DNA from: a bacterium
Lineage (GTDB): Bacteria > UBA9089 > CG2-30-40-21 > SBAY01
Reading direction: 5' to 3'
Length of the DNA: 59,479 nucleotides
NCBI GenBank assembly: GCA_040757115.1
Contig: JBFLYA010000002.1
Location: 1-59,479 of the forward strand
In this document: piece after piece, positions 7,378-23,575 of the stretch
Layout of the letters: every line of letters starts with the position of its first letter
How positions within the stretch are numbered: the first letter of the stretch is position 1
The notes under the pieces: model-generated
The model's database searches: none
What the model was told of the DNA's origin: nothing
The model's input: only the letters and a program-made list of their open reading frames with translations
Position numbers and translations under genes: made by a program

Positions 7378-7534
7378 AAAGTAACTATTCAGCCACAGAT
7401 GGACACGGATGAAACACTGAAAATTCGTAATCCGTGTTCGTAATTAGGCTGAAGGCTTTTCCTCCTATTATCCTCTGCCTTCTGCCCTCTGCCTTCTGCC
7501 CTCTGCCCTCTGTATTTATCCGTGCTAATCCGTG

Positions 7535-8401
7535 TTAATCAGTGGTTGATAAATCTTTGATTACTGCCTTTCGCATTATCTCAACTGGTGCTTTTTTACC
7601 TGTCCACATCTCAAATGCGAGTGCTCCTTGATGAACCAACATTCCGAGCCCATTTTGTGTTTTGCATCCTTTTTCGCGGGCTACTTTAAGAAGCAGGGTT
7701 TGAACTGGTTTGTAGATGATGTCATAAACTACCTGCCGGGAAGAAAGCCAATCTGGATTAATTAATAAGGGGTCATTTCTCGACATACCACAGGGTGTCG
7801 CATTGATGAGTATATCGCTATCTTTAATATTATCTTCAAATTCTTTATCTTCTAATCTCACGGTCTCAATACATAATTTGGGAAAATAATGTTTAATCTG
7901 TGTCGTGAGTGTTTCTGCCTTAACCACATCTTTATCCATAAAAGTTATTCTTTTGATTCCTGATTTAGCCAATGAGAAGCCGATTGCCCGTGCCGCTCCG
8001 CCGGCACCTAAAATAAAAACCTTTTTATCCGCAGGGTCAACATTCATCTCTTCGATAAGTGAGGCAACAAATCCCTTCCCATCCGTATTATCTCCAATTA
8101 GTTTTCCGTCATCCACACAAATAGTATTTACTGCTCCAATTAAACCTGCCTCATAGGAAAACTTATCTAAATACTTCATTACCACTTCTTTGTAAGGTAT
8201 GGTTACATTTGCTCCAGAAATATTTAAGCCTAACAAACCATTAATGGCTAAATTCAGGTTTTCTGGTTTGACTTTAAATGGTAGATAGACAAAGTTCAGG
8301 TTTAATTCTTTAAATGCGGCATTATGCATCAGGGGGGATAAGGTATAATCTATGGGATAACCAATTAATCCAACTATCTTTGTTAAGGCGTTGATATTCA
8401 T
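7535..8401 (-). CDS. aroE: Shikimate dehydrogenase AroE
   Basis: Motifs SPLMHNAAF, GANVTIPYK, NTDGKGF and GAGGAARA. The last codons (STTD*) fall in a dispersed repeat (ttaatcagtggttga). Confidence 0.93.
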   Translation of the reverse strand: MNINALTKIVGLIGYPIDYTLSPLMHNAAFKELNLNFVYLPFKVKPENLNLAINGLLGLNISGANVTIPYKEVVMKYLDKFSYEAGLIGAVNTICVDDGKLIGDNTDGKGFVASLIEEMNVDPADKKVFILGAGGAARAIGFSLAKSGIKRITFMDKDVVKAETLTTQIKHYFPKLCIETVRLEDKEFEDNIKDSDILINATPCGMSRNDPLLINPDWLSSRQVVYDIIYKPVQTLLLKVAREKGCKTQNGLGMLVHQGALAFEMWTGKKAPVEIMRKAVIKDLSTTD

Positions 8402-8491
8402 TTTTGTTTCTCGGCTCGGGGTATAAATTGGGATATATCAATTGAGCAGACAAAGCAGTGGTAACTTATTTTCTTCTTAACCTTTTCTCCT

Positions 8492-10618
8492 TTATCCTGC
8501 GATTTGTTGAAGATTATGTTGTTCTCGTTCAAGTATTCTGAGAAATGCCTGGACGACTCCCGGATGAAACTGACTTCCTGAGCCTTTCTTTAATTCATTT
8601 ATAGCCACATCCAGCGGCAATGCTTTACGGTAAGGTCTATCTGATGTCATCGCATCAAAGGCATCCGCAACCTTAATAATACTTGCATGTAAAGGTATTT
8701 TGTCATGGCTTAATCCATCAGGGTAACCCTTGCCATCTATTTGTTCATGGTGAAGTCTGACGGCTAACATTATTATTTCCGGAAATTCTACAGGTCCCAG
8801 AATTTTAGCACTAATCATTGGATGTTCCTTGATGACACGCCATTCATCTTCATCTAATTTACCAGGTTTGAGAAGCACATCTTCTTTTATCCCAATTTTA
8901 CCTATGTCATGGAGAAGTGCGGCAATTTCAAGCGATTCTATATCTTCTTCCGTGAGTTCTAATTCTCTGGCTATATCTAATGTATATTTAACTACTGATT
9001 CAGAATGTCCTTTAGTATAGGGGTCTTTAGCATCTACGGCCGCGGCCAATGCCTTAACGGTGCGCAGGAAACTATTATGTATTTCTTCATGTAATTTGGC
9101 ATTTGAAACCGCTATAGCCGCCTGGTCGGCAATAGCCGAAAGTAAATTTACCTGGTCTTGTGTATATCTTTGGCGCCGTGTAGAATATACCGTCAGGACT
9201 CCAATTGATTCTTCCTTCACCACTAATGGAATACATAATAATGAATTTACACCTTCTTTAGCCACATATTCAGGATGGTAGTATTTTTTATCATTAGGGA
9301 CATCAGTGATAATCACTGGTTTTCGTTCTTGAAGTGCCTCCTCACTTATGGTTTTGCGTTGACCAATGGTTGTTCCTTTTTCATTAAAATACTCTTGCAT
9401 TAAACCATAAGAGGCATTTAATACTATTTCCCTTTCTTCTCCAATCAGTCTTAAAGAGCAAATGGATGCTTCCATAAGTCTTGCGGCTACCTCTAAAATT
9501 AAGGTTAAAACCTTCTCTAAATCTAAAGTAGAAGAAATCGTCTTACCTACCTCAAATAATGTGGATAATTCACTTACCTTTTGTTTCATTCCGCGGTATA
9601 ATCGAGCATTTTCTAAGGAAATAGCCACTGTATTGGCTAAAGTAGATAACACCCTTAAATTATCTTGATTAAATGCTTGCTCTTCAACACGGCAGATATT
9701 AAAGATACCAATTACATTCCCTCGAACGACTAATGGAAATGCAAGGAATGATTCAAACTTTTTCCCAATGATAGATTTATCCATTGATTCTCCTATTTTA
9801 TCTATCGTGGTGATAAGGTGTTCCGGGGTAATTTTAATATCTGAGAGGTTACTAAACATAGAGACTAATTTATCTTTAATCTCACTAATATATTTTTGAG
9901 AGAGTTGAGTATTGGTTTTTATCCACAACCAGTTATTTTCGTCATTTTCATAGAGTAGTAGTGCACAAAAATCAAATTTGACTATCTCATGCAGGGTATC
10001 TCCAACTAATCTAAATATTTCCTCCTCACTGCGGATAGAATTAAGTGTTTGAGTAATCTCATTTATTTTAGTCAGTTCATTAATTCTTGATTCGGCTTTA
10101 CTATAAAGTTCTGCATTGGCTATGGCGGAAGCGGCTTGACTGGCGAATAAAGATAAAAGCCCTAAATCTTCACTGGTATAATCTATTGGTTTAATTAGCC
10201 GATTAACAGATATGACACCAATGACTTTATCACGAACCGAAAGAGGAACACACATAGCGGATTTTATTCTTTCTTCTTCCCGTATCTTTCTAAAACGCAG
10301 GTCAGTTACTTTACCAATAAGGAGTAGAGGTTCTCCTTCTTTTGCCACTGTCCCGGCAATCCCATCACCTAATTTTATCCTGGTATTTGAAATTACCTCA
10401 GGTGAAAGCCCTCTGGCGATACTTATTGTTAATTCTCCTTTTTCTTCATTAAGTAACATTATTGAGCCTGTATCAGCTTCTAACTGAGATATGCAGGCAT
10501 CCATAATCAAATCAAGCAGTTCATCCAGAATAATGGTTGAACCCATTGCTTTACCAATTATATAGAGGCTGGATAATCTCTGGAGTTGTTTATTTTGTTC
10601 AATTGTCTCCTCAGACAT
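8492..10618 (-). CDS. Multi-GAF HD-GYP domain protein (c-di-GMP phosphodiesterase type)
   Basis: 708 aa. GAF-like repeats are followed by HDIGKIGI and HHEQIDGKGYPDGL (HD-GYP signature). Confidence 0.85.
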   Translation of the reverse strand: MSEETIEQNKQLQRLSSLYIIGKAMGSTIILDELLDLIMDACISQLEADTGSIMLLNEEKGELTISIARGLSPEVISNTRIKLGDGIAGTVAKEGEPLLLIGKVTDLRFRKIREEERIKSAMCVPLSVRDKVIGVISVNRLIKPIDYTSEDLGLLSLFASQAASAIANAELYSKAESRINELTKINEITQTLNSIRSEEEIFRLVGDTLHEIVKFDFCALLLYENDENNWLWIKTNTQLSQKYISEIKDKLVSMFSNLSDIKITPEHLITTIDKIGESMDKSIIGKKFESFLAFPLVVRGNVIGIFNICRVEEQAFNQDNLRVLSTLANTVAISLENARLYRGMKQKVSELSTLFEVGKTISSTLDLEKVLTLILEVAARLMEASICSLRLIGEEREIVLNASYGLMQEYFNEKGTTIGQRKTISEEALQERKPVIITDVPNDKKYYHPEYVAKEGVNSLLCIPLVVKEESIGVLTVYSTRRQRYTQDQVNLLSAIADQAAIAVSNAKLHEEIHNSFLRTVKALAAAVDAKDPYTKGHSESVVKYTLDIARELELTEEDIESLEIAALLHDIGKIGIKEDVLLKPGKLDEDEWRVIKEHPMISAKILGPVEFPEIIMLAVRLHHEQIDGKGYPDGLSHDKIPLHASIIKVADAFDAMTSDRPYRKALPLDVAINELKKGSGSQFHPGVVQAFLRILEREQHNLQQIAG

Positions 10619-10873: not shown

Positions 10874-11344
10874 TTATGCGGCTAATTTCAATTCTCTCCT
10901 TATCCCTGTTACCTCATTTTCAAGTCTTAGAATCTTTATTTCCAACTTCTCATACTCATCTCGTCTGACAATTACCTCATATAGTCGGTCAATCCGTTTA
11001 TTTGTGTCATCTATTCGTATCGTATTTTTAAATATTTCCTCTTTCAATTCTACTCTTAATTCATCAATCCGTTTATTTGTTTCATCAATCCGTTTATTTG
11101 TTTCATCAATCCGCATCGTATTTTTAGCTATTTCTTCTTTCAATTCTACTCTCAGAGCATCAATCCGTTTGTTCGTTTCATCAATTCTTCTGCTCTGGTC
11201 CACCAGATGGGTATTCATATCATCCAGTCGTTTATTCATCATTGCCAGAGCAGTTTTAATCTGTTCATTTTCTGACTTAATGGCTTGCAAATCAGGCACT
11301 ATAAGTTCTTGTATAAGTTTTTTTATTGTCTCTGCTATTTCCAT
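10874..11344 (-). CDS. Coiled-coil protein with tandem IDETNKRID repeats
   Basis: 156 aa with heptad-like composition. RIDETNKRID recurs 5 times, along with a duplicated LRVELKEEI(A/F)KNT(M/I)RID block. The matching DNA tandem repeats lie at about 11040-11130. Confidence 0.6.
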   Translation of the reverse strand: MEIAETIKKLIQELIVPDLQAIKSENEQIKTALAMMNKRLDDMNTHLVDQSRRIDETNKRIDALRVELKEEIAKNTMRIDETNKRIDETNKRIDELRVELKEEIFKNTIRIDDTNKRIDRLYEVIVRRDEYEKLEIKILRLENEVTGIRRELKLAA

Positions 11345-11791: not shown

Positions 11792-12718
11792 TTAGAATTT
11801 TGTCATCAAAGAAATTCGATGGGTATCATCCAAATCATCATAATCACAATAGGCATAATCTAAACCAATACCCGTCCCTGGGAATTTAAATCCCGCACCA
11901 AAAGTCAGGTCTGATGATTTTAAAGCATCTTTCGTCAGTGTTTTATATCCGGCACGAATGGCCATTATTTCCTTGAACCAATATTCTGTCCCAAGATTAA
12001 AGTTTGTATCATTGTCTGAAGGGAAATTAACATCCAGACTTAAGGTCAATGCCTTATCTAATAATTTATAGGCACCACCTACCTTGAAATTTAATGGTAA
12101 TGCGTCTTTTTCACTCACAAATGCCTTTAATTTAGGGCCAAAATTCTGCACTACCATCCCTAAAGTGAGATTTTCAACTTGAGGTTTATATAAACAACCA
12201 ACATCTAAACCAAAGCCGGTAGATTTTTCGGTATCGATCTTCATCTGGATGTATTTTACTGTTGCCCCCACAGAACACTTTTCCATCAGCTGTCTGGCAT
12301 AGGATACCGCTACGGCAATATCTTTACCTTCGTATGTCCCATCCGGAACATTATCATTACCATCAAGATATTTGTCTATGCTTCCCGAATCTAATAGGGT
12401 AATCGCTCCACCCATAATTCCACCCATTATTTGAGCAGGATGGACATAGGCTAAGTAATTGTATTTTATCTCTGCCAGCCAATCTGAGTACATAAAGGTA
12501 CATTGTCTTTGTTCAATCTGAGCAATCCCGGCTGGATTCCAATAGAGGGCGTTAATATCATCTGCTACCGCACAAAATGATTCACCCATACCATTAGCCC
12601 TTGCCCCCTGGCCTAATTTTAAAAACACCGCTCCTTTACTTCCAGGCGAACCCGCCAGGACATAACTACCTGCCAGCAAAACTGCTACCCCTACCATTAA
12701 ACTTACAAACCTTTTCAT
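11792..12718 (-). CDS. PorV/PorQ-family-like outer-membrane beta-barrel, paralogue 1
   Basis: Signal peptide, then GAVFLKLGQGARANGMGESFCAVADDINALYWNPAGIA, which fits the PorV/PorQ N-terminal signature as I recall it. Alternating beta-strand pattern and C-terminal aromatic residue (TKF). AAGGAGG RBS. Confidence 0.6.
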   Translation of the reverse strand: MKRFVSLMVGVAVLLAGSYVLAGSPGSKGAVFLKLGQGARANGMGESFCAVADDINALYWNPAGIAQIEQRQCTFMYSDWLAEIKYNYLAYVHPAQIMGGIMGGAITLLDSGSIDKYLDGNDNVPDGTYEGKDIAVAVSYARQLMEKCSVGATVKYIQMKIDTEKSTGFGLDVGCLYKPQVENLTLGMVVQNFGPKLKAFVSEKDALPLNFKVGGAYKLLDKALTLSLDVNFPSDNDTNFNLGTEYWFKEIMAIRAGYKTLTKDALKSSDLTFGAGFKFPGTGIGLDYAYCDYDDLDDTHRISLMTKF

Positions 12719-12992
12719 TTTAACCTACCTCCTTAATTTTATTTTAGATTTTAGATTGAACCGATCTGTTTTAAAGTCAGTTTTCAATCAAAAATCGCAA
12801 ATCTATTAATTTTGTATTTCGGCTTGTTGCTGATAAATTACAAGCCAAAATTAGAGACATTTTACTCCTTACTCTAATATATCACAATATATTATTTTTG
12901 TCAAGAATTTTTTTTGATTATTTTTTTAATTATGATATGTATAAAGATAAGTTATTAAGAGGGAATATGATTGTGACGAGCAATTTTTTAAC
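12014..12992 (-). repeat. About 0.98-kb block near-identical to 21121-22089 (5' two-thirds of the PorV-like gene, its 5' UTR and promoter)
   Basis: Direct comparison shows identity apart from a ~99-nt diverged patch at 12269-12367 and homopolymer indels upstream. The 3' 220 nt of the two genes are only about 75% identical. Confidence 0.9.
12876..12904 (-). promoter_or_regulatory. Sigma-70-type promoter for PorV-like paralogue 1
   Basis: Minus strand: TTGACA (12904-12899), 17 nt, TATATT (12881-12876), with TGa extended -10. This leaves a ~150-nt leader containing the hairpin ggcttgt..acaagcc. Confidence 0.65.
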
Positions 12993-13052
12993 TTTGTGTC
13001 TTTGGTGCCTTTAGTCTTTGGTCTTCGGTCTGTAGTCTGTAGCCTGTGCTCT

Positions 13053-13316
13053 TTACTTTATCACCCCAATCTTACCTTTCTTAACCGAGCCGAGTTCATC
13101 CTTTAAGAAATAGATGTAAATACCCGAAGCAACATCTTCGTTATCTTTATTCTTTAAATTCCATTTAATCTGGCTATCATTGATGTTATCTTTTTGTTTC
13201 TCAATGACTAATTCACCGGCTATGTTATATATTCTTAAGGTCACCTGTTTATCCGTGGTAATCTGAGTAAAGGTTACCTCTTGCCCTTTATAAGCAGGAT
13301 TAGGATAGACCAAAGC
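13053..13316 (-). other. T9SS type A sorting domain (Por secretion tail)
   Basis: LVYPNPAYKGQEVTFTQ..VTLRIYNIAGELV..IKWNLKNKDNEDVASGIYIYFLKDE..KKGKIGVIK* fits the TIGR04183-type pattern. Confidence 0.8.
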
Positions 13317-16300
13317 ACCCTCTAAATTATTAAATACCGCTGGCACTTTGATAGTTATTTCATCATCTAATACCGCAGGTCGCTGGTCAATAGATTGTTC
13401 CTGACCAATTCTTTCGATAAACTTTGTTTCCCGGTTTTCTTCATCATCAAACTCAAAATTAACTTTAGAATAGACATCACAAGAAATGACCCTGAATGGC
13501 ACGGTAGCTAATAATCCTTCATCATCTATCTCTGGCTCCCAGACTACGACCGCATAATCAATCTTACCTGATGAATTATCTACTTCATTCTTCAGAATAT
13601 CAGCCTGATGTTTCACTGAACCCCGTGGGAAATCCCCCGGTTGAATCTGGATACCATCTTTGCTGTTATCCGCATCTATTACCTGTAATACCTTTGGATT
13701 AAAAGATAAGTGAATCTCACCACCAAGATAGTCTTTGGCATCGCGAACATATATTTTCAGATAGATAATATTCCCCACCCGCAGTTCATCAATATCTACT
13801 CCTTCAAGTGTCTCAAGATTAAATGACAATTCTATTCTGCCTTCAGTCTTTTTAGTTTTAGCCGGCATCGGAGTTAATTTTGCTATTTTAGCCTTTATTT
13901 GCTGTTTCCCAAAATTATCTCCAAAGATTTCAAAATCTAATGAATTAACCTGCTCATCATGATTAAAATCACCCTCTTTATTTCTTTCCCAATTACCTTC
14001 AGGGTTACCTTTATAATCTCCGTAGGCATCAACAAACCCAGGCCAATCGTCAATATTTACCTTACCATCATTAGTTATATCCCCTGCCAATAAGGTCATT
14101 GTGCCGATGTAACTGGTATCCTCAAATTGGGTTGGACTGATATAAATATTAGTTTTACTCGCAGGAGATGCCCCCCAGGTATCAAAGGTAAGGGTGTAGG
14201 TTCCTACAGGAATCTTCCCAAAAAAGAAGTAAGAATTATTATTAGTCATTGTAGTCGTCCCAATTTCTACAATCCTAACTTGAATATCTGAGCAGGTACC
14301 CAATGTCGAAGTCCCTAAATTAAGCAAGCAAAACCCTGCTATATTACCAAATCTTCTCAATGAATAGGCAGTAAAAGTGCAGGGAGAGCCAGTTAATCCT
14401 ACCGAAATAGCCTGGATGGTATATGTGCCTGGTGGTTCTGTGCCTAAGGTAAGAAAGGAAGATGTTGTGCCTTGAATGTTGGTAGTCGTTTTAGTTGGAG
14501 AGATAGAATAATCTATTGACCCGGGCGGCGAAGAGATAATTTTCCATTCTACATCTACCCCAGAGCAAGGATTATTATATTTATCCACTACCTTAACTAT
14601 AAATGGGTCTTTTAAAGTAAAGGTGCAGGTATTAACCTGGTTATTTCCAGAGATATAATGGAGGGTAGTTGGAGTGCCAGGGGTGATAATGATAGAGGTA
14701 GTGCCAATAAACCCAAGATATTCCCCTTTGATGGTATATGTGCCGATGTAATAGGCAGAAAAGGTATTAAGGGTAAATGAACCACCACCCGATGTAGTAA
14801 AAGTAGTAGAGCCAGTAACATCAAGTTCTAAACCACTACAATATGCCACGCAGTTATAATTAATTACCTCATCTGCCTTGACCACTTTATCCTTTGGGAA
14901 AACAGAGATAGAGGTAATAACATAATAGAGGGCAGAGTGAGTATTAAATGGAATATCTATACTTCCTGGCTTTCTTAATCTTGTCATCCGATTGTGTTGC
15001 GAATCAAAATCAAAGATAACACTTGAGGTTCCACCCAGGATAGCTTTAAATTTTATCTGACAAAGTATTCCCGAACCAGTAGCAGAGCCAGAAATTAGCC
15101 CAACGCTATAATCTATCTCACCTTTAGTATTATCATATTTATTCTGGAGTACCCAACCCTCTGGTGGAAATGTTCCTGTGCCTATTTCAATTACCTGAAG
15201 GATATTGGGGTTAAAACTAAGATGTAATTCTGCTACTCTTAATTCTGTTACATCCTCTATTTCCACATAAGCGGTAAATGTTGAATTAACCGCAATATTC
15301 TGTATGGCAGGTGTAATTTTCAAAAGAGTGGTTGGGAGGATATAAAAGGTTGTCTGAGCATAAATATCGGTCATCAAACCATAAGCCGTAATAGTTGTCG
15401 TTCCAATTGGCTGGCTATCGACGGTAAATATTACCTCAAATCCACCGAAGGCATTAGTAGTAGCTAAAGTAATAGTCGGAGTAGTCCCAAACTCAATCCT
15501 GATTAATTCAGTTGCCCCAAAGCCATTACCCATTACGGTGACAATAGAACCGATAGTCCCAGAAGTAGGGTTAATAAAGCCAATATTTGGCAGGATGATA
15601 AAGGGACATCTATCCATATTACCACTTACCATCCCTCTACCTGTAATAGTCGTAATGCCATAAGGTTGGGTATCTATAGTAAATACGGCAGAAAATGCTC
15701 CGTAGAAATTAGTAGTGGTGTAGGCAATTGTAGGCGTAGTGCCAAAGTTAATACAGATACCCTCTGTTGCGTCAAATCCAGCACCTTCTACAGTGATAAG
15801 AGTTCCTACTGTTCCCAGTGATGGCGTAATCATAAATATTCGTGGAATGACAAAAAATATAGTTTCAGCACTCTTACCTGAACTCAAACCTGTCGCCTTC
15901 ACCGTTTTAGTGCCATAAGGTTGGGTGCCAACGGTAAAAGTGGTATTAAATTGCCCTAAACTATCAGTAGAAGTCAAAACAATGGTTTGGGTAGTGCCAA
16001 AATCTATCCTTATCACTTCAGTCACTTTATAATCTATTCCACTTATCGTTACTATTGTTCCTACAGAGCCAGAAATAGGCAAAATCAAAGTAATATTTGC
16101 TGGAGGTCCTTCTGATAACCAAGGCTCATAATCAATATTACCAGAAAATGTCGAAGTAGCAGGTGGATGTTGTCCCCACCAATTATATTCTGCTGTCTGA
16201 GTCCCATCTGTTTGTAGATTATATGTTTGGTTATTATAGATATTATTATAGATAAGTGGAGAAATTTCTGAAGATTTACAATAAATACCTACTCCATTAC

Positions 16301-18260
16301 CAGCTGGATCGCCACCTCGGTTATATCTGAGAGTATTATAGGTAATGTTATTATCATCCGACGAAATTAAGTAAATTCCACTACCTACTTCTCCTGTACC
16401 ACCATCACCACATGGGACTCCTGCTGCTCCTCCTTGCCCGCCTATATTATCTGATGTGGTATTACCTGAAATGGTATTTCCTGTAGATGATGAAAGATAT
16501 ATTCCTGTACCTACACCACCTATACCACCAGAACTACCATACGCTCCTCCAGCTCTTCCTCCTTGACCACCTATATTATGTGATATAGTATTATTTGATA
16601 TAGTATTTCCTGTAGAGAATAAAAGATATATACCAGTACCTATACCACCTGCACCAGTAGAACCTTGATAGCCCAGCGCACCTGCTCCTCCTTGACCACC
16701 TATGTTATGTAATATAGTATTATTTGATATAGTATTTCCTGTAGAGAATAAAAGATATATGGCAGCACCTATTCCACCTGGAACACCAGGGCGGCCTACT
16801 TTTCCATTTTCTCCGATTCCTCCAACGATATAATTATATCGGATAGTAAAATTTGAACAATTAATTAATACAATTCGACCGAGATTTGTTGAACCAGAAC
16901 CAGCAAGAGTCAAAGTTTGATACTCAATAGTAGTTGAAGTAGTAATTCCATAATAATAATGAATTAGTTCACCATTATAGGTATTGGAAGGAAAGATGGT
17001 ATTATTGTAGCTATTTGAGTCAATGTAGAGACCATATCCTTGACCAGATATCCCTTCGTAACCAGCTTCAGCACCTGGTCCTCCTTGTCCCCCTATATTA
17101 TCTGATGTGGTATTACCTGAAATGGTATTTCCTGTAGAAGATGAAAGATATATTCCCACACCTATACCACCTGTACCACCACTACCCCAGTATCCGCCTC
17201 CTGGTCCTCCTTGCCCCCCTATATTATCTGATATGATATTATCTAAGATAGTATTCCCTGTAGAGGATAAAAGATATATTCCCGCACCTACACCACCTAT
17301 ACCACCAGAACTACTAGCACCACCTGACCCTCCTTGTCCCCCTATATTATCTGATGTGGTATTACCTGAAATGGTATTTCCTGTAGAAGATGAAAGATAT
17401 ATTCCTGTACCTACACCACCTATACCACCCATACCTAAACCATTTCCAGATCCCCCTTGACCACCTGTATTATCTGATATAGTATTACCTGAGATGATAT
17501 TTCCTGTAGAAGATAAAAGATATGTTCCCGCACCTATACCACCTATACCACCATCACCATTAAAACCGCCTCCTCCTCCTTGGCCGCCTGTATTTTGTGA
17601 GATTACATTTCCTAAGATGGTGTTATTTGTTGATGATGAGAGGTATATCCCGCAGCCTATACCACCTGCCCCTCCAGAGTAAAAGTCAAAGCCTGCACCT
17701 CCTTGACCACCTACGTTGTTGGAGATAGTATTTGTACCAATGAGATTATTTTTTGATCCTAAAAGGTATATTCCACAACCTATACTACCTGACGAACCAG
17801 TAATTCCATCATTTCCTTTATTTCCATGAATAGAATTATAAGTAATTACAATTTCCCATACATTTTTTAAATACACTGCTTGCTTAGCATAGCTAATTTC
17901 ACAATGACTAATTGTCCCTTTCGCATTTGTTCCATTAAATTCAACTCCTTGCCAATATCCAGGTGTAGGAGAGGAAAAACTAGTAAAGGTAATAGTTCCT
18001 CTCTCTGCCCCAGAAGCATTTAAGGTACCATACACTATCAACGCTGTATTAGTTGCAAACTTTACTTCTACTCTTGGCTCGATAACAAGTGTTTCACCAG
18101 AAGGCACAGTAACAGTAGCCGTAATTATGTAGGGACTACCTCCAAGATTCCAAATACCACTTTGAGTGCCACTCACCTCCATAGCTTCCACAGTTTCTAA
18201 TTTAAACGAGACTCCTATTACTAATAATAAATAAACCACCCATTTCATCTTTTTATCCAT
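13053..18260 (-). CDS. Giant secreted surface protein 1: beta-helix repeats, 3 IPT/TIG-like, cohesin-like x2, Ig-like, dockerin-like, T9SS C-terminal domain
   Basis: The track ORF begins at TTG 18278. ATG 18260 sits 8 nt after AAGGAGG (18275-18269). Signal peptide MDKKMKWVVYLLLVIGVSF. Domain calls are by motif; see the sub-features. Confidence 0.9.
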   Translation of the reverse strand: MDKKMKWVVYLLLVIGVSFKLETVEAMEVSGTQSGIWNLGGSPYIITATVTVPSGETLVIEPRVEVKFATNTALIVYGTLNASGAERGTITFTSFSSPTPGYWQGVEFNGTNAKGTISHCEISYAKQAVYLKNVWEIVITYNSIHGNKGNDGITGSSGSIGCGIYLLGSKNNLIGTNTISNNVGGQGGAGFDFYSGGAGGIGCGIYLSSSTNNTILGNVISQNTGGQGGGGGFNGDGGIGGIGAGTYLLSSTGNIISGNTISDNTGGQGGSGNGLGMGGIGGVGTGIYLSSSTGNTISGNTTSDNIGGQGGSGGASSSGGIGGVGAGIYLLSSTGNTILDNIISDNIGGQGGPGGGYWGSGGTGGIGVGIYLSSSTGNTISGNTTSDNIGGQGGPGAEAGYEGISGQGYGLYIDSNSYNNTIFPSNTYNGELIHYYYGITTSTTIEYQTLTLAGSGSTNLGRIVLINCSNFTIRYNYIVGGIGENGKVGRPGVPGGIGAAIYLLFSTGNTISNNTILHNIGGQGGAGALGYQGSTGAGGIGTGIYLLFSTGNTISNNTISHNIGGQGGRAGGAYGSSGGIGGVGTGIYLSSSTGNTISGNTTSDNIGGQGGAAGVPCGDGGTGEVGSGIYLISSDDNNITYNTLRYNRGGDPAGNGVGIYCKSSEISPLIYNNIYNNQTYNLQTDGTQTAEYNWWGQHPPATSTFSGNIDYEPWLSEGPPANITLILPISGSVGTIVTISGIDYKVTEVIRIDFGTTQTIVLTSTDSLGQFNTTFTVGTQPYGTKTVKATGLSSGKSAETIFFVIPRIFMITPSLGTVGTLITVEGAGFDATEGICINFGTTPTIAYTTTNFYGAFSAVFTIDTQPYGITTITGRGMVSGNMDRCPFIILPNIGFINPTSGTIGSIVTVMGNGFGATELIRIEFGTTPTITLATTNAFGGFEVIFTVDSQPIGTTTITAYGLMTDIYAQTTFYILPTTLLKITPAIQNIAVNSTFTAYVEIEDVTELRVAELHLSFNPNILQVIEIGTGTFPPEGWVLQNKYDNTKGEIDYSVGLISGSATGSGILCQIKFKAILGGTSSVIFDFDSQHNRMTRLRKPGSIDIPFNTHSALYYVITSISVFPKDKVVKADEVINYNCVAYCSGLELDVTGSTTFTTSGGGSFTLNTFSAYYIGTYTIKGEYLGFIGTTSIIITPGTPTTLHYISGNNQVNTCTFTLKDPFIVKVVDKYNNPCSGVDVEWKIISSPPGSIDYSISPTKTTTNIQGTTSSFLTLGTEPPGTYTIQAISVGLTGSPCTFTAYSLRRFGNIAGFCLLNLGTSTLGTCSDIQVRIVEIGTTTMTNNNSYFFFGKIPVGTYTLTFDTWGASPASKTNIYISPTQFEDTSYIGTMTLLAGDITNDGKVNIDDWPGFVDAYGDYKGNPEGNWERNKEGDFNHDEQVNSLDFEIFGDNFGKQQIKAKIAKLTPMPAKTKKTEGRIELSFNLETLEGVDIDELRVGNIIYLKIYVRDAKDYLGGEIHLSFNPKVLQVIDADNSKDGIQIQPGDFPRGSVKHQADILKNEVDNSSGKIDYAVVVWEPEIDDEGLLATVPFRVISCDVYSKVNFEFDDEENRETKFIERIGQEQSIDQRPAVLDDEITIKVPAVFNNLEGALVYPNPAYKGQEVTFTQITTDKQVTLRIYNIAGELVIEKQKDNINDSQIKWNLKNKDNEDVASGIYIYFLKDELGSVKKGKIGVIK
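13905..14095 (-). other. Dockerin-like duplicated Ca-binding segment
   Basis: GDITNDGKVNIDDW followed by DFNHDEQVNSLDFEIFGDNFG. Confidence 0.6.
15340..16095 (-). other. Three tandem IPT/TIG-like domains (about 84 aa each)
   Basis: Example: PRIFMITPSLGTVGTLITVEGAGFDATEGICINFGTTPTIAYTTTNFYGAFSAVFTIDTQPYGITTITGRG, repeated three times with the same pattern. Confidence 0.6.
16280..17800 (-). repeat. Gly-rich right-handed beta-helix-like repeat array in giant protein 1
   Basis: About 40-aa modules, GGQGG..GGIG(V/A/T)GIYL(S/L)SSTGNTISGNT(I/T)SDNIGG, arranged as 6+1 and 4+1 modules around a spacer. About 90-nt near-identical DNA copies lie at 16441-16530, 17091-17160 and 17341-17430. Confidence 0.8.
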
Positions 18261-20577
18261 TTTTATCTCCTCCTTCAATTTTAATTGATATTGTCTGAAA
18301 CATTTGTTTAATATATGTATTTTCAGGATTAATTTTTAAAATTAAATTACATTCTTTTTCTGCCTCAGAATATTTGCCTTGGCTGTAATACACACAGGCT
18401 AAATTTTGGTGTGCTTTAATGTTATTTATATCCATCTTAATTACTTGTTTAAGTTCTCTTATAGCTTCCTTGTATCTTCCTTTTTGAGCATAAAGACTTC
18501 CTAAATAATTATGTAATGTGATATTATTAGGATTCAATTTTGATGCTTTTTGAAATTCAATGACACCCCTTTCAATATTATTTATCTGAAGATAAGCTTT
18601 GGCTAAATTAGTATGAATTAATGCATCGTTTGGATTTACCTTAATTGCTTTCTTAAATTCACGGATTGCGAGTAAAAATTCCCCCTTTTGAAGATATAAT
18701 AGCCCCAAGTTATTATAACTATTGGCATAATTTAATATTACATCATCCTTTGCACTCCAATCTTGTTGATATATTTCTTTATCGTGAATACCTCTAAGAT
18801 TAAATCTTACTTCATTAATATGCGAAATAAATGTTTGTTCATCTTTACTTCTTATTACTCGATAAAATATACCCGCTGGAATCTTGGAGAATCCTTGGGG
18901 TATAAATTCATCCATTAATGCATAAATTGGATAAGTATCAATATTTTGAGTAATGATTTCACTAGCCTTTATCTGATATAATTGTTCGTTAGTAGAAGGT
19001 GATTTTATTTCAGAAACGCTCAATTTAGGATATTTCCTTTTAATCTCTTCTATGTACCAATCTTTATCAAGATAACTAAAGATAGAAATTAAGTCTTGCC
19101 TTTTTCTCTCAATATATTGAAGGTAACAATATGGGAAAAGGACAGCATCCCCCTTTAAAAAGATAATACTCTTTGATTCTAATGGAGCCATAATATTCAT
19201 TCCACAATCATAAGCAAAATAATACTTATGTTTATCATTCTGGAAATAATGAGATTTAAATAGAAAAACTGGACATAAAATTATGATAACAACATATAAT
19301 GAATAAATATAGTTAGGTAAAAGTTTAACAACTAATTTACTTATCTCTATAAAGCCATAACCAATCCATATACTCATAATCATATATGATGGAATATAAT
19401 AATCTTTAATATTAAGAATGGTATAATGAATGGAATAAAAAGCATTAGCACTACATATTAAGGATAAAAATATAAAGAATAAGCGTTGTCTTGAAAGACA
19501 AAATGTTAATCCCATCAAACTAATTATTACAAAATAACTACTAAACTGAAGTGGAAAAAATGTAATTGTATGTTTTACTAATCGTTGAAGAAGTTGAGTA
19601 GAAGCAAAATATCTTTCTCTATATTCTTCTGCGGTTAAATGAGCGATTAATCTTTCAAAAGTACTTGGATCACCCCAATTATACACTGGGTGGGTAGATG
19701 CTCGAATTGGTAGATATAGGTATAGAAACACTGGCAAGATGAATAAGCAAAATAGTTTGATAAGTAGTGAGTAGTCAATCGAGAGCACCCAGAGGTAAGG
19801 TTTTCGAGTTGGATTTTCTTGCCTCCATTTCTTCCAGGACACGACTATGACAAAGAATATGCTTGCTGGGACTAAGTAAATTGTTTGCATGTGATGGGTA
19901 AAAGATAAGCCAAGGGTGAAAGCGAAGAGGTAAAGATATTTTTGATTTTTGATTTTTGATTTTTGATTTTTTTGCTCCGTACTTCCTACTTCTGCCCACT
20001 TTAGGAGGATGAAGATTAAGAGCGTGGCAAACAGAGCGTTTAATGTGTACTTCTCTGCAATTACTGCTTGTTCCCAGAAAGTGGTAGCAAAGGCAAGCAT
20101 CAATGCTCCAACTATCGCAGGGATGAGGAATGAAAGATGAAGGATGAGTTTATTTTCCTCACTTCTTACTTCACACTTCATACTTCCTACCTTTAAGATG
20201 ATAAAATACACCATCATACATGCCAAAGAGGCACATAAGGCAGAGGCTAAATTCATCCGATAGGCAATGTTTCCTATCGGTAGAATAGTCATCCATAGTT
20301 TGCCAAGTAGACAATACAACGGATAACCTGTTGGATGTGGAATGCCCAAAACATAAGCCGCTGTGACCATATCCCCTGAATCATGAAATCCAATCGTAGG
20401 AGTAAGTGTGTGTAGATACACTGCCCAGCAGATAAAAAATACCACTATCCCACCTGCGTAATCTATCAGATTAAATACTTTTGGAACGATTGGCTCATCC
20501 CTTGGGATAAGAAACTTTGGAATTTTAAGATGAACCTTCCATTTCCTCTTTTTCTGCCCTCCACTTTTCTTTCTCAT
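18253..20577 (-). CDS. DUF2723 / TMEM260-like GT-C membrane protein fused to C-terminal TPR repeats
   Basis: TLTPTIGFHDSGDMVTAAYVLGIPHPTGYPLYCLLGKLW matches the DUF2723 signature. More than 10 predicted TM segments, then at least 4 TPRs (NNLGLLYLQKGEF.., HTNLAKAYLQ.., HNYLGSLYAQKGRY.., HQNLACVYYSQGKY..). Its stop overlaps the giant-gene ATG (ATGGATAA). Confidence 0.75.
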   Translation of the reverse strand: MRKKSGGQKKRKWKVHLKIPKFLIPRDEPIVPKVFNLIDYAGGIVVFFICWAVYLHTLTPTIGFHDSGDMVTAAYVLGIPHPTGYPLYCLLGKLWMTILPIGNIAYRMNLASALCASLACMMVYFIILKVGSMKCEVRSEENKLILHLSFLIPAIVGALMLAFATTFWEQAVIAEKYTLNALFATLLIFILLKWAEVGSTEQKNQKSKIKNQKYLYLFAFTLGLSFTHHMQTIYLVPASIFFVIVVSWKKWRQENPTRKPYLWVLSIDYSLLIKLFCLFILPVFLYLYLPIRASTHPVYNWGDPSTFERLIAHLTAEEYRERYFASTQLLQRLVKHTITFFPLQFSSYFVIISLMGLTFCLSRQRLFFIFLSLICSANAFYSIHYTILNIKDYYIPSYMIMSIWIGYGFIEISKLVVKLLPNYIYSLYVVIIILCPVFLFKSHYFQNDKHKYYFAYDCGMNIMAPLESKSIIFLKGDAVLFPYCYLQYIERKRQDLISIFSYLDKDWYIEEIKRKYPKLSVSEIKSPSTNEQLYQIKASEIITQNIDTYPIYALMDEFIPQGFSKIPAGIFYRVIRSKDEQTFISHINEVRFNLRGIHDKEIYQQDWSAKDDVILNYANSYNNLGLLYLQKGEFLLAIREFKKAIKVNPNDALIHTNLAKAYLQINNIERGVIEFQKASKLNPNNITLHNYLGSLYAQKGRYKEAIRELKQVIKMDINNIKAHQNLACVYYSQGKYSEAEKECNLILKINPENTYIKQMFQTISIKIEGGDKNG

Positions 20578-20599
20578 CTCCTCACCTCATCACTTATCC

Positions 20600-20629
20600 A
20601 TTATACCACTACTCTCTTTCCTCTGTCAA
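20600..20629 (-). promoter_or_regulatory. Sigma-70-type promoter for the DUF2723-TPR / giant protein 1 operon
   Basis: Minus strand: TTGACA (20629-20624), 18 nt, TATAAT (20605-20600), with TGg extended -10. GAGGTGAGGAG RBS, then ATG at 20577. Confidence 0.7.
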
Positions 20630-20897: not shown

Positions 20898-21818
20898 TTA
20901 AAACTTTGTCACTAATGACACTCGGTGCGTATCATCCAGATCACCATAATCACAATAGGCATAATCAAGTCCTATGCCTGTGCCTGGTAATCTAAATCCT
21001 GCTCCAAAGGTTAAATCTGAGGATTTTAATTCATCTTTAGTTAGTGTTTTGTATCCAGCTCGAAGTGCTACTATTTCTTTGAACCAGTATTCTGCTCCAA
21101 GGTTAAAATTCGTATCATTATCTGAAGGGAAATTAACATCCAGACTTAAGGTCAATGCCTTATCTAATAATTTATAGGCACCACCTACCTTGAAATTTAA
21201 TGGTAATGCATCTTTTTCACTCACAAATGCCTTTAATTTAGGGCCAAAATTCTGCACTACCATTCCTAAAGTGAGATTTTCAACTTGAGGTTTATATAAA
21301 CAACCAACATCTAAACCAAAGCCGGTAGATTTTTCGGTATCGATCTTCATCTGGATGTATTTTACTGTTGCCCCTAATGAGCAGTTCCCCTTTATCTCTC
21401 TGGCATAGGAAACTGCTAATGCCATATCTTTACCATCATAGTTACCTTCTGGATTGGCAGCCGCACCATATTTGTCTATACTTCCCGAATCTAATAGGGT
21501 AATCGCTCCACCCATAATTCCACCCATTATTTGAGCAGGATGGACATAGGCTAAGTAATTGTATTTTATCTCTGCCAGCCAATCTGAGTACATAAAGGTA
21601 CATTGTCTTTGTTCAATCTGAGCAATCCCGGCTGGATTCCAATAGAGGGCGTTAATATCATCTGCTACCGCACAAAATGATTCACCCATACCATTAGCCC
21701 TTGCCCCCTGGCCTAATTTTAAAAACACCGCTCCTTTACTTCCAGGCGAACCCGCCAGGACATAACTACCTGCCAGCAAAACTGCTACCCCTACCATTAA
21801 ACTTACAAACCTTTTCAT
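20898..21818 (-). CDS. PorV/PorQ-family-like outer-membrane beta-barrel, paralogue 2
   Basis: 306 aa. Residues 1-116 and about 151-243 are identical to paralogue 1. One loop and the C-terminal ~65 aa are diverged. Confidence 0.6.
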   Translation of the reverse strand: MKRFVSLMVGVAVLLAGSYVLAGSPGSKGAVFLKLGQGARANGMGESFCAVADDINALYWNPAGIAQIEQRQCTFMYSDWLAEIKYNYLAYVHPAQIMGGIMGGAITLLDSGSIDKYGAAANPEGNYDGKDMALAVSYAREIKGNCSLGATVKYIQMKIDTEKSTGFGLDVGCLYKPQVENLTLGMVVQNFGPKLKAFVSEKDALPLNFKVGGAYKLLDKALTLSLDVNFPSDNDTNFNLGAEYWFKEIVALRAGYKTLTKDELKSSDLTFGAGFRLPGTGIGLDYAYCDYGDLDDTHRVSLVTKF

Positions 21819-22089
21819 TTTAACCTACCTCCTTAATTTTATTTTAGATTTTAGATTGAACCGATCTGTTTTAAAGTCAGTTTTCAATCAAAAATCGCAA
21901 ATCTATTAATTTTGTATTTCGGCTTGTTGCTGATAAATTACAAGCCAAAATTAGAGACATTTTACTCCTTACTCTAATATATCACAATATATTATTTTGT
22001 CAAGAATTTTTTTGATTATTTTTTAATTATGATGTGGGTAAAGATAAGTTATTAAGAGGGAATATGATTGTGACGAGCAATTTTTTAAC
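21121..22089 (-). repeat. Partner of the 12014-12992 duplicated block
   Basis: See 12014-12992. The diverged patch here is about 21374-21468. Confidence 0.9.
21976..22003 (-). promoter_or_regulatory. Sigma-70-type promoter for PorV-like paralogue 2
   Basis: Same boxes as at 12876-12904, but with a 16-nt spacer (one T fewer in the run). Confidence 0.6.
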
Positions 22090-22817: not shown

Positions 22818-22846
22818 TTGACAAATTAAAAAATATATGTTATAAT
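22818..22846 (+). promoter_or_regulatory. Consensus sigma-70 promoter for the PEP-CTERM protein gene
   Basis: TTGACA (22818-22823), 17 nt, TATAAT (22841-22846), with TGt extended -10. AAGGAGGA RBS at 22881; ATG at 22898. Confidence 0.8.
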
Positions 22847-22897: not shown

Positions 22898-23575
22898 ATG
22901 AGAAAAATATTTTTTAAAGGGGTTAATCAACTAATTCTTTTTTTATGGGGGATAATCTTTATTGTTTCTTCAGCTTATGCTATCCCCAGCCTTCAATTGT
23001 ATATTCCAGGCTCTACTTACGACCCTATCACTGAGTCCTGGACCACTACTGCTTCTGATTTTGAACTGCAAGTTCTGGGAGCCTCATCTCCACATAATGC
23101 TGATTATATAAAGAATGTCACTCTTTATATTGCTATAAATGAGAACGAAAAGGGATTGCCAGGAGCCTATGTAAATATCAACGGTTCTCCAATAGATTTT
23201 AACTACTATGGCAACCCATTCTTGATGCCTCCTCATGGTATCTATCCAACCTATTATCGTGCTTATTGGCTACCTAATTTAATGGTTAGTACAGCCGGGG
23301 AGATTGTCCATAATTATAATCCTGGTGGGAGTGGAACAGATTTGGGGGATATTCATTATCTCTCGATAAACTGGGGTGGTTATAGCCGTATTCATTTTGA
23401 TCTAGCGGGTATTGTTGTGAACAAATATGGGAAAAAATACTATAGAAGGGCGCCTTTCTCTCATGATGCTGAAGTAAATTCACCACCCCCGGCACCTGTT
23501 GTTCCAGAACCTTCAACTATGTTACTTTTATTGCCTGGTTTGTTAGGATTGGCAAATTTCAGAAGGAGTATCTAA
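22898..23575 (+). CDS. PEP-CTERM sorting-domain secreted protein
   Basis: Signal peptide. The C-terminus VPEPSTMLLLLPGLLGLANFRRSI shows the PEP motif, a hydrophobic helix and a basic tail. Confidence 0.8.
   Translation: MRKIFFKGVNQLILFLWGIIFIVSSAYAIPSLQLYIPGSTYDPITESWTTTASDFELQVLGASSPHNADYIKNVTLYIAINENEKGLPGAYVNINGSPIDFNYYGNPFLMPPHGIYPTYYRAYWLPNLMVSTAGEIVHNYNPGGSGTDLGDIHYLSINWGGYSRIHFDLAGIVVNKYGKKYYRRAPFSHDAEVNSPPPAPVVPEPSTMLLLLPGLLGLANFRRSI

Follow-up and report, generated by a model that had tools for sequence, protein, structure and literature searches.

Organization of the locus

The window analysed here, a stretch of 59,479 nucleotides, carries on its reverse strand an ORF for a 774-aa TMEM260-family enzyme (18253-20577), recognized from the ORF list and profile matches, followed by an ORF for a giant secreted cargo of 1735 aa (13053-18260), relatives of which lie 3' of GT-C genes elsewhere. 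The parts of this cassette and of its flanking repeat described below are all on the same strand. A predicted sigma-70-type promoter, TTGACA-N18-(TG)TATAAT, precedes the enzyme gene (20600-20629) and matches the consensus at 12/12 positions with an extended -10 element. The enzyme stop and the giant start overlap by 8 nt (ATGGATAA, 18253-18260, read directly off the sequence), and a Shine-Dalgarno sequence, GGAGGAG, is found about 8 nt 5' of the giant start. Judged from this arrangement, the two genes are predicted to be translationally coupled. In the related loci L001, L005, L014, L015 and L016, enzyme and giant likewise overlap by 4-11 nt or are separated by a small gap.

The cassette is bracketed by a 1.2-kb direct repeat, whose arms (11792-12992 and 20898-22089) were identified by nucleotide comparison and are 92.4% identical over 1201 nt. 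Each arm contains a PorV/PorQ-family barrel gene: a downstream one of 308 aa (11792-12718) with a promoter-like site at 12904-12876 (11/12 consensus match), and a second one of 306 aa (20898-21818) with a predicted promoter-like site at 22003-21976. Both score 232 bits against NF033709 (cutoff 90), and the two proteins are 91.6% identical. The downstream barrel falls below the PorV and PorQ equivalog cutoffs, so the assignment is at family level. An earlier note on this DNA had described the promoter, the overlap and the neighboring barrel with its own promoter, all of which hold, while the second barrel was absent from it. The order upstream PorV/Q, enzyme, giant recurs in L001, and PorV/Q genes adjoin the cassette in the window, L001, L093 and L098, but most other cassettes have none beside them.

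A large glycan gene cluster with two YfhO genes, GT4s, Wzy_C and PMT_2 genes was detected at 23.6-38.8 kb by profile scan. No polyprenyl-phosphate sugar synthase was found within the window by profile scans.

A TMEM260-family membrane enzyme

The enzyme was expected to be a DUF2723 protein with TPRs, and profile searches agree, with 144 bits against PF11028 (cutoff 24.2) and at least four TPRs at residues 616-757; PF28495 (TMEM260_2) is also in its precomputed Pfam list. It consists of an 11-TM GT-C core, a Rossmann-like lobe and C-terminal TPRs. Human TMEM260 (PDB 9rql) is matched by phmmer over residues 41-518 (E = 4e-32). In the pairwise alignment, D66 corresponds to human D52, H81 to H67, the Tyr of an EEY motif to Y267, and a KGD motif to RGD441, with the peptide-side Asp D441 retained; human R264 and R355 have no matching residues in the enzyme. 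By sequence, the protein is a genuine member of the TMEM260 family.

All 15 paralogues compared share D66 and H228, and nearly all share H81 and D477. Cassette paralogues have 79-84% identity in the donor-side module (residues 40-300) but only 26-42% in the TM8-11, Rossmann-like and TPR parts. Human TMEM260 binds its acceptor peptide in extended form through the Rossmann-like lobe and TPR (bioRxiv 10.64898/2026.03.17.711096). The contrast between a conserved donor side and divergent acceptor-side parts would fit a shared donor and diversified acceptor recognition.

A modular giant with divergent IPT/TIG-like repeats

The giant has a signal peptide, as anticipated for a secreted protein of 1735 aa, followed by a Gly-rich parallel beta-helix at aa ~27-715 (16116-18182; NosD 75 bits, Beta_helix 72 bits, TIGR03804 93 bits) with 24% Gly and 21% Ser+Thr. 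Three tandem 85-aa IPT/TIG-like Ig-fold repeats, delineated with an in-house HMM, occupy aa 722-976 (15333-16097). A per-segment Pfam scan of aa 977-1645 (13326-15332) gave a cohesin (aa 977-1116, Cohesin 1.6e-7), a Big_1-like and CarboxypepD_reg-like region (aa 1117-1392, 1.2e-6 and 2.7e-5, both sub-threshold), a dockerin (aa 1393-1470, Dockerin_1 1.4e-5) and a second cohesin-like module (aa 1471-1645, Cohesin 0.013). The protein ends in the T9SS type-A C-terminal sorting domain (CTD) that had been proposed, at aa 1646-1735 (13056-13325; TIGR04183 32.9 bits, cutoff 23; PF18962 31 bits, cutoff 27). The beta-helix and the modules between the repeats and the CTD were missing from the earlier description.

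The repeats had been described as three IPT/TIG-like domains. Against Pfam TIG, R2 and R3 score 18.6 bits each, below the cutoff of 20.9, R1 has no match and the whole three-repeat segment gives no score. Homologous repeats pass the TIG threshold in P0128 (2e-17) and in L098 (13181-15181, 2e-14), the sole PDB match of a 33-repeat profile is CGTase domain D over its full length (E = 1e-4), and AF2 models of the repeats are 7-strand sandwiches with pLDDT 90-97 (90 and 96.6). The profile, the homologues and the models lend indirect support to a divergent IPT/TIG-like fold; as IPT/TIG-like domains the repeats are not fully confirmed.

Recurrent pairing of GT-C enzymes with related giants

A second cassette lies at 51906-59479 on the forward strand of the window and was likewise absent from the earlier note. 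It comprises an 844-aa DUF2079 membrane protein with C-terminal TPRs (51906-54440; PF09852 215 bits) and a giant recognized by homology to the first (54459-59479), which has at least 1673 aa and continues past the window end. The two giants are 68% identical over aa 809-1725. The second has a signal peptide, a beta-helix, two IPT-like repeats (HMM matches at aa 762-931), a dockerin and a CTD-like end, with Pfam matches to Beta_helix, NosD, Dockerin_1 and CHU_C.

In a reverse survey of related giants with readable upstream DNA, a GT-C gene lies directly 5' of 14 of the 16. Eleven of these genes are TMEM260-like (window, L001, L002, L005, L014, L015, L016, L056, L074, L059 and L063), two are DUF2079+TPR (window 51906-54440 and L048) and one, in L093, is a PMT_2 gene without TPR; giants L097 and L098 have no adjoining GT-C gene. 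Two MAGs (SBAY01 and JBFMDD01) hold three TMEM260-like/giant cassettes each. If, as a rough guess, about 20 of some 2,500 genes per genome encode GT-C proteins, chance adjacency would be near 1%, and against this guessed background the observed adjacency is far above chance. The enzyme-giant pairing is kept in related MAGs, where the two genes have been duplicated together. The TMEM260-like family has at least 7-15 paralogues per genome, and most of those outside the 11 named pairs adjoin unrelated genes without a giant 3'. The family is therefore not uniformly cis-paired with giants. In Armatimonadota, the gene directly after each of three TMEM260-like homologues is pilin-like and of the GFTLVE type. 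Pilins are textbook targets of O-glycosylation by enzymes encoded in cis, and by analogy this adjacency may be a second enzyme-substrate pairing.

Could the membrane protein be mainly a non-catalytic TPR chaperone or tether of the giant, or the adjacency be functionally meaningless? TPR domains often bind extended peptides, and the DUF2079 enzyme aligns with the TMEM260-like family in the TPR part only (hhalign E = 7e-27, 23% identity), as would suit a shared tethering role. However, the catalytic residues are kept across the 15 paralogues, the PMT_2 partner lacks TPRs and the adjacency far exceeds chance, which makes this explanation highly improbable.

Candidate acceptor domains

All cassette partners have in common the IPT-like repeats, the cohesin, the Big/CarboxypepD_reg region, the dockerin and the CTD. 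Since each of them has several S/T-rich modules, the acceptor domain is not identifiable from context.

One candidate is the B-strand Thr of the IPT/TIG-like repeats, whose O-glycosylation by the TMEM260-like enzyme would give the human TMEM260-IPT pair a counterpart in bacteria. IPT-like repeats, 1-6 in number, are present in all full-length giants paired with a TMEM260-like gene, and the giant of L093 has FG-GAP in place of the beta-helix yet retains them. The A-B strand segment P..G..G[TS].[IV]T[IV].G, present in all three repeats of the giant, is the best-conserved part of the repeat, the B-strand position is Ser/Thr in 91% of 33 repeats, and the acceptor-side KGD is retained in the enzyme. 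Human TMEM260 works on unfolded A-B strands (10.64898/2026.03.17.711096), a mode of action compatible with Sec export. However, giants with DUF2079+TPR or PMT_2 partners bear the same repeats, and no TIG match occurs among the 25 most frequent of the 44 families matched by 36 distinct other downstream neighbors of TMEM260-like genes. The B-strand Thr is equally kept beside a TMEM260-like enzyme, another enzyme or none, and CGTase domain D has it too, so it looks like a feature of the fold; Thr positions 14, 55, 63 and 65 are conserved just as strongly. The giant lacks the published sequon of human TMEM260, its distance from P to T being 3 residues less, and the repeats score below the Pfam TIG threshold. 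IPT-specific modification is possible but unproven, and we regard it as rather doubtful.

A proposed model for cargo-dedicated glycosylation

Because the pairing recurs across related genomes, the enzyme probably glycosylates the giant, and the conserved, co-duplicated coupling of enzyme and CTD cargo makes a cargo-dedicated periplasmic glycosylation cassette the best reading of the locus, to which we assign a probability of roughly 0.55. The earlier proposal of a dedicated enzyme-cargo module is to this extent supported, but its IPT specificity is not, given the DUF2079+TPR and PMT_2 partners and the missing human sequon. Taken as a whole, the earlier observation is confirmed in part and its interpretation supported in part.

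We then propose a mechanistic model. A single transcript from the 20629-20600 promoter would yield the inner-membrane GT-C enzyme and, by coupling, the Sec-exported surface giant, so that the giant would never be produced without its modifying enzyme. The active site would face the periplasm, formed by Asp66/His81 of the first periplasmic loop and the KGD loop of the Rossmann-like lobe, with the TPR domain also periplasmic. The donor may be a polyprenyl-phosphate-linked monosaccharide, and Ser/Thr residues of the giant would be O-glycosylated while it is still unfolded, on leaving SecYEG. The glycosylated giant would then be exported and anchored via its T9SS-type CTD, with the flanking PorV/PorQ-family barrels as possible shuttle or anchor components. 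Points against this reading are the sugar synthase not found in the window, the giants L097 and L098 with no GT-C gene beside them, the human R264 and R355 left unmatched in the alignment, and the unrelated neighbors of most other TMEM260-like paralogues.

The GT-C enzymes might instead act on a non-protein acceptor, such as lipopolysaccharide, a lipid or a surface glycan, needed to anchor CTD cargo. Bacteroidota T9SS cargo is anchored to anionic LPS once the CTD is cleaved, GT-C families such as ArnT, YfhO and the Wzy-like proteins act on lipids or polymers, and the glycan gene cluster at 23.6-38.8 kb is nearby. A shared anchor glycan, however, poorly explains one coupled, co-duplicated enzyme gene per giant; the nearest characterized relative is a protein O-mannosyltransferase whose peptide-side Asp (D441) is kept here, and the TPR and Rossmann-like lobes diverge between paralogues. 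We consider this alternative improbable.

Comparison with known systems

Human TMEM260 (PF11028/PF28495) is an ER protein O-mannosyltransferase for the IPT domains of plexins, MET, RON and fibrocystin. The enzyme described here resembles it by family (E = 4e-32, covering the GT-C core and the first part of the Rossmann-like lobe), in the GT-C, Rossmann-like and TPR layout, and in the equivalents of D52, H67, Y267 and D441; the candidate substrate also has IPT/TIG-like Ig repeats with a strand-B Thr, and an extracytoplasmic active site is likewise expected. Human TMEM260 uses Dol-P-Man, whereas the bacterial donor would be some polyprenyl-P-sugar, and its TPR is a five-helix module, compared with at least four canonical repeats here. 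The human sequon is not in the giant. Further differences are that the bacterial substrate is cis-encoded and apparently translationally coupled, that the bacterial family is expanded into the many paralogues counted above, and that other GT-C families stand in beside cargo of this type.

GT-C enzymes dedicated to a protein substrate encoded next to them are known from Pseudomonas aeruginosa, with TfpW and group IV pilin, and from Streptococcus mutans, with Pgf (PgfM1/PgfM2, YfhO-type) and the Cnm adhesin. In both, a polytopic GT-C dependent on lipid-linked sugar adjoins its surface-protein substrate, similar to the gene arrangement here, and the Armatimonadota genes followed by pilin-like genes recall TfpW and its pilin. 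The cassette differs from both in its GT-C family, in a multi-domain T9SS-type cargo of more than 1700 aa, and in being multi-copy with interchangeable enzyme families.

Bacteroidota general O-glycosylation modifies T9SS cargo at D(S/T)(A/I/L/V/M/T). It is periplasmic and modifies CTD cargo either before type IX export or while it proceeds, as we propose here. That system is genome-wide and motif-driven, whereas here the enzyme is cargo-linked, the giant has only one such motif and the host is a Desantisbacteria-like lineage outside Bacteroidota.

Eukaryotic TMTC1-4 (GT-C plus TPR, acting on cadherin EC domains) and POMT1/2 belong to distinct GT-C families with beta-sandwich or mucin-like substrates. 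The GT-C plus TPR architecture is common to TMTC and this enzyme, with no sequence relationship detected outside the TPRs. In this lineage, three GT-C families (TMEM260-like, DUF2079 and PMT_2) adjoin one family of cargo instead of separate classes.

Gene organization of the cassette

The gene for the TMEM260-like enzyme (774 aa; 20577-18253, minus strand) lies downstream of a perfect extended sigma-70-type promoter, TTGACA-N18-(TG)TATAAT, recognized by sequence match at 20629-20600 on the same strand. Its stop codon, TAA at 18255-18253, is read within ATGGATAA, and the ORF of the 1735-aa giant secreted protein (18260-13053, minus strand) starts with an ATG at 18260, about 8 nt downstream of a GGAGGAG Shine-Dalgarno sequence. 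A 334-nt gap separates the end of the giant gene from the next ORF, which encodes a 308-aa barrel protein (12718-11792, minus strand) and has a promoter-like site within that gap (12904-12876, minus strand; 11/12 match). The gene coordinates and the 8-nt overlap of enzyme stop and giant start in the earlier note are therefore correct, and the promoters that it placed ahead of the enzyme and barrel genes were both seen.

This barrel, previously described as PorV/PorQ-like, and a second copy at 20898-21818 each score 232 bits with NF033709 (PorV/PorQ family, cutoff 90), but both fall short of the equivalog models, scoring 142-149 for PorQ (cutoff 220) and 114-116 for PorV (cutoff 250). Thus, the family assignment stands for both barrels and neither subtype is assigned. 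The two barrel genes and their promoters are contained in a 1201-nt direct repeat (11792-12992 and 20898-22089, 92.4% identity), whose arms flank the enzyme-giant pair and through which the cassette could be duplicated or excised. Adjacent PorV/Q genes are found in the window and at the related loci L001, L093 and L098, and are absent from most other cassettes. They are the only genes of the type IX secretion system (T9SS) machinery in the window, the rest of the machinery being SprA/Sov, PorK-N and PorU.

A signalling protein with three GAF domains and an HD-type (HD_5) domain is encoded 3' of the giant both in the window (8492-10618, minus strand) and in L001 (12497-14626). It directly follows the giant in L001; in the window, the PorV/Q copy and a coiled-coil ORF (10874-11344) lie between. 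Shortly 5' of cassettes there is a PEGA-domain protein, at 50522-51394 (plus strand) before a DUF2079+TPR gene in the window and at 992-2725 before PorV/Q in L001. The window also encodes a PEP-CTERM 'choice-of-anchor N' protein (22898-23575, plus strand) with a perfect TTGACA-N17-TATAAT promoter at 22818-22846, and therefore PEP-CTERM/exosortase-type and T9SS-type sorting signals occur in one organism.

The enzyme belongs to the TMEM260 family

As the earlier note had proposed, the enzyme matches PF11028 (TMEM260-like), with 144 bits against a cutoff of 24.2 over residues 66-251. PF28495 (TMEM260_2) is present in its precomputed Pfam list, and TPR_1, TPR_2 and TPR_8 match residues 616-757. 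From homology and the basic N-terminus, the C-terminal TPR domain is presumably extracytoplasmic. The only non-TPR match of the enzyme in the PDB is human TMEM260 (9rql/9rqm/9rqn). The phmmer alignment to 9rql (E = 4e-32; query 41-518, chain 27-483) extends past the first seven transmembrane helices.

Cryo-EM of human TMEM260 revealed a GT-C core, a Rossmann-like lobe and a TPR domain (bioRxiv 10.64898/2026.03.17.711096), and the window enzyme has the same layout. In the human enzyme, D52, H67 and R355 engage the donor mannose, D52A abolishes activity, Y267 belongs to the donor-loading loop, R264 contacts the phosphate and D441 adjoins the acceptor Thr (same preprint). Pairwise alignment to 9rql places D66 and H81 of the window enzyme at human D52 and H67, the Tyr of AEEY at Y267 in human REEY, and KGD at RGD441. 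Human R264 and R355 are unmatched, facing Ala and Asp (with an adjacent Lys), respectively, in a low-identity stretch of the alignment. Comparison of 15 paralogues showed D66 in all of them, and H81 and D477 in nearly all. Judged by its sequence, the window enzyme is a real TMEM260-family member and is probably an active glycosyltransferase. The idea that the membrane protein serves purely as a chaperone is contradicted by the invariant catalytic residues.

Conservation differs markedly along the chain. Cassette paralogues are 79-84% identical in the donor-side module (residues 40-300) and only 26-42% identical in TM8-11 and the Rossmann-like and TPR parts, as expected for a shared donor and diversified acceptor recognition. 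The closest homologue (67% identity), in L013, has genes for an ECF sigma factor and a zf-HC2 anti-sigma factor directly 5' (5167-6087), overlapping the TMEM260-like gene; this contig stops before any gene 3' of it.

Domain architecture of the giant

The earlier note correctly described a giant with tandem repeats and a C-terminal T9SS-type domain (CTD), but overlooked its beta-helix, cohesin and dockerin modules. A signal peptide (aa 1-26, read from the sequence) is followed by a Gly-rich parallel beta-helix (aa ~27-715, 24% Gly; NosD, Beta_helix, TIGR03804) and three tandem 85-aa repeats, R1 to R3 (aa 722-976). Pfam then identifies a cohesin (aa 977-1116), Big_1-like and CarboxypepD_reg-like domains (aa 1117-1392, both sub-threshold) and a dockerin (aa 1393-1470). 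A second cohesin-like domain (aa 1471-1645, E = 0.013) precedes the T9SS type-A CTD (aa 1651-1731), which exceeds the cutoffs of both TIGR04183 (32.9 bits, cutoff 23) and PF18962 (31 bits, cutoff 27) and, together with the signal peptide, bears out the predicted cargo character. Ser and Thr make up 21-27% of the beta-helix, the repeats and the Big/CarboxypepD_reg region, and 18% of cohesin 1.

Cohesin-like and dockerin modules thus occur in one chain (aa 977-1645, window 13326-15332), likewise in paralogues, which suggests that the giants could assemble with one another as a network on the cell surface.

The repeats as divergent IPT/TIG-like domains

The earlier note had read the repeats as IPT/TIG domains. 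They miss the gathering threshold of PF01833: R2 and R3 reach 18.6 bits (threshold 20.9), with TIG as their sole Pfam match, and neither R1 nor the whole three-repeat segment gives any match. However, a profile of 33 repeats searched against the whole PDB matched only domain D of cyclodextrin glucanotransferase (CGTase; E = 1.3e-4), aligning with it end to end (2-84). This domain is classed as IPT/TIG. Homologous repeats also exceed the TIG threshold, in the related protein P0128 (2.3e-17) and in L098 (13181-15181, 1.9e-14).

AlphaFold2 models a single repeat with seven strands (pLDDT 96.6) and the three repeats as confident sandwiches (pLDDT 90.4). Foldseek returned generic Ig-like matches only (best E = 5e-3), among which CGTase domain D came up repeatedly at 20-26% identity; no match of the single repeat fell below E = 1e-3, and no plexin or MET IPT domain was among the top 50 matches. 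The search with the three-repeat model, whose matches were all generic tandem-Ig structures superposing at high rmsd, was set aside as uninformative about IPT identity. From the profile matches and the predicted fold, we call the repeats divergent IPT/TIG-like.

The enzyme-giant pairing recurs in related genomes

In related genomes, the enzyme-giant pairing is conserved for a subset of TMEM260-like genes. A TMEM260-like gene directly precedes a giant at 11 loci (the window, L001, L002, L005, L014, L015, L016, L056, L074, L059 and L063), mostly with a 4-11-nt overlap or a gap below 25 nt. The architecture common to all full-length partners comprises a beta-helix, 1-6 IPT-like repeats, cohesin, Big/CarboxypepD_reg, dockerin, cohesin and CTD; the giants of L002 and L016 have their C-terminal part in a different frame. 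Each of two MAGs carries three such cassettes. The TMEM260-like family is strongly expanded in Desantisbacteria-like MAGs (loci L017-L069), with at least 15 genes counted for MAG210 (JBFMDD01) and at least 7 for SBAY01, and in a neighbor-joining tree the paired enzymes are scattered at several places among unpaired paralogues.

The window itself holds a second cassette on the plus strand, in which the gene for a DUF2079+TPR membrane protein (51906-54440) is followed after 18 nt by giant 2 (ATG at 54459; 54459-59479; at least 1673 aa, cut by the window end). Giant 2 combines a signal peptide and a beta-helix with two IPT-like repeats, a dockerin and a CTD-like end, and shares 68% identity with giant 1 over ~920 residues. 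The same DUF2079+TPR-giant order is found in L048. In L093, a PMT_2-type GT-C without TPR lies 5' of a giant that has an FG-GAP N-terminus instead of the beta-helix and keeps the IPT-like repeats and the remaining architecture. A PDB search with the DUF2079 protein gave zero matches, and hhalign aligned the DUF2079 and TMEM260-like families in the TPR part only; this alignment gives no sign that their membrane modules are related.

Counted from the giants, upstream DNA is readable for 16, and a GT-C gene lies directly 5' of 14 of these (11 TMEM260-like, 2 DUF2079 and 1 PMT_2), the exceptions being those of L097 and L098; at a rough guess of ~20 GT-C genes among ~2,500 genes per genome, any one giant would have such a neighbour by chance with a probability near 1%. 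The recurrence of this gene order with three enzyme families, co-duplicated within genomes, is a robust signal. A search for contigs encoding the related proteins P0006 and P0012 returned none.

L014 (GCA_040755795.1, JBFLXS010000070) is a 92-98% identical relative whose gene order is a mosaic when set against window positions 51750-59476, 5487-5731 and 6909-8492. It encodes, in order, DUF2079+TPR, the N-terminal beta-helix of giant 2 (a 504-aa ORF), a different TMEM260-like protein, a giant with six IPT-like repeats and the C-terminus of giant 2, and shikimate dehydrogenase. The mosaic arose by recombination between cassettes or else is an artefact of a chimeric assembly. The 504-aa ORF was considered as independent evidence for a "beta-helix only" partner of DUF2079 and then discounted: it matches the N-terminus of window giant 2 at 98% identity, and its contig is rearranged or chimeric.

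Most other TMEM260-like paralogues adjoin other genes. The commonest families among 36 distinct downstream neighbours are prepilin N_methyl (7) and PMT_2 (5), followed by methyltransferases, response regulators and GT2; TIG is not among the 25 most frequent of the 44 matched families. At three Armatimonadota loci, the TMEM260-like gene lacks the long TPR tail, and a type IV pilin-like gene with a GFTLVE motif comes immediately 3' of it (L006 11984-12421, L008 3101-3553, L010 11932-12378), a possible pilin glycosylation pair. Elusimicrobia MAGs (L070, L071, L079, L081, L084) carry three tandem TMEM260-like paralogues with 4-nt overlaps, then further membrane or PMT_2-like genes.

A model for cargo-dedicated glycosylation

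The simplest mechanism, and the most likely one, is that the cassette performs periplasmic glycosylation dedicated to its own cargo. With a polyprenyl-phosphate sugar as donor, the enzyme would glycosylate Ser/Thr residues of the unfolded giant as it leaves SecYEG, and CTD-dependent export of the modified giant would follow. Modification of the unfolded chain is suggested by the mechanism of human TMEM260, whose substrates are extended, unfolded A-B strand peptides and whose TPR domain alone suffices for peptide binding (bioRxiv 10.64898/2026.03.17.711096). Translational coupling, which would make giant synthesis contingent on the enzyme, fits this model, as does the contrast between the well-conserved donor-side module and the divergent remainder of the cassette enzymes. 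A search of the window for a polyprenyl-phosphate sugar synthase (GT2) found none.

A large glycan gene cluster adjoins the cassette (23602-38784), comprising GT4 genes, a GH39-like protein, Wzy_C, a methyltransferase and a PMT_2 GT-C. It also holds two divergently oriented YfhO-type GT-C genes with weak C-terminal similarity to PgfM1/PgfM2. With such a cluster at 23.6-38.8 kb, a possible alternative is that the acceptor is not a protein but, for example, an anchor glycan; the presence of one enzyme for each giant is hard to reconcile with this.

Which domain of the giant would be the acceptor cannot be assigned from gene context. The beta-helix was first suspected as a common denominator because phmmer missed it in some partners; the L056 and L048 giants do carry Beta_helix or PMP repeats by Pfam. 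It was rejected as a universal feature given the FG-GAP giant of L093, which argues mildly against a beta-helix being required. The IPT-like repeats of L097 and L098 need no cis-encoded enzyme and may be served in trans.

The earlier note favoured a narrower form of cargo-dedicated glycosylation, in which the IPT domains are the specific target, as in a TMEM260-IPT enzyme-substrate pair. Such a pair is not established, and the claim is weakened because the enzyme families are interchangeable beside this type of cargo: giants with IPT-like repeats also stand beside DUF2079+TPR or PMT_2 enzymes. The human sequon, P-x5-P-x3-G-P-x2-[GA]-G-G-x2-[TS] on strands A-B of the substrate domain (10.64898/2026.03.17.711096), is absent from the giant in strict or core form; the repeats have P-x2-G-x2-G-[TS]-x-[IV]-T, with a P-to-T distance 3 residues shorter. 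Human TMEM260 tolerates sequon variation (2026 fibrocystin preprint), so this absence lowers the case for IPT without being fatal to it. The B-strand position, occupied in giant 1 by T738, T823 and T908, is Ser/Thr in 91% of repeats, and positions 14, 55, 63 and 65 are Ser/Thr in 85-94%. The B-strand Thr is kept irrespective of whether the adjacent enzyme is DUF2079, PMT_2 or none, and CGTase domain D also has it; by these alignments, it is not diagnostic. The lack of TIG in the 25 most frequent of 44 matched families downstream of other paralogues also speaks against IPT-specific modification, which we regard as unlikely.

Equally doubtful is an ancient TMEM260-IPT relationship, in which the bacterial enzyme would glycosylate the B-strand Thr of the IPT/TIG-like repeats in cis-encoded cargo leaving Sec unfolded, a specificity inherited by metazoan TMEM260. 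The Rossmann-like and TPR lobes that bind the acceptor would then have diversified over 7-15 or more paralogues serving different surface proteins.

Comparison with known systems

Cargo-dedicated glycosylation by the cassette would combine elements already known separately. These are the TMEM260 family, of which human TMEM260 is, to our knowledge, the only characterised member; dedicated GT-C enzymes beside their own substrate, as TfpW with pilin and Pgf with Cnm; and periplasmic O-glycosylation of T9SS cargo in Bacteroidota. Our literature searches found no functional study of a bacterial DUF2723 or DUF2079 member, nothing on bacterial members in work on GT-C/TPR periplasmic O-glycosylation, and no description of a TMEM260-family enzyme combined with a T9SS-type giant; the TMEM260 papers cite only "distant homologs in bacteria".

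The cassette supplies a natural, cis-encoded candidate substrate for a bacterial TMEM260 homologue, and so allows what such homologues do, and what their ancestral specificity was, to be tested unusually directly. A positive result would make this enzyme the first protein glycosyltransferase of the TMEM260 type from a bacterium, test whether IPT specificity is older than the metazoa, and bring to light cargo-specific glycosylation that serves a T9SS-type pathway in an organism outside Bacteroidota. Three interchangeable GT-C families with cohesin/dockerin giants in multi-copy, recombining cassettes suggest a diversifiable glycoprotein coat in an uncultivated phylum. Relative to the known systems, what appears to be new at the gene level is a TMEM260-family enzyme translationally coupled to a T9SS-type giant outside Bacteroidota, and multi-copy cassettes that place three interchangeable GT-C families beside one giant family.
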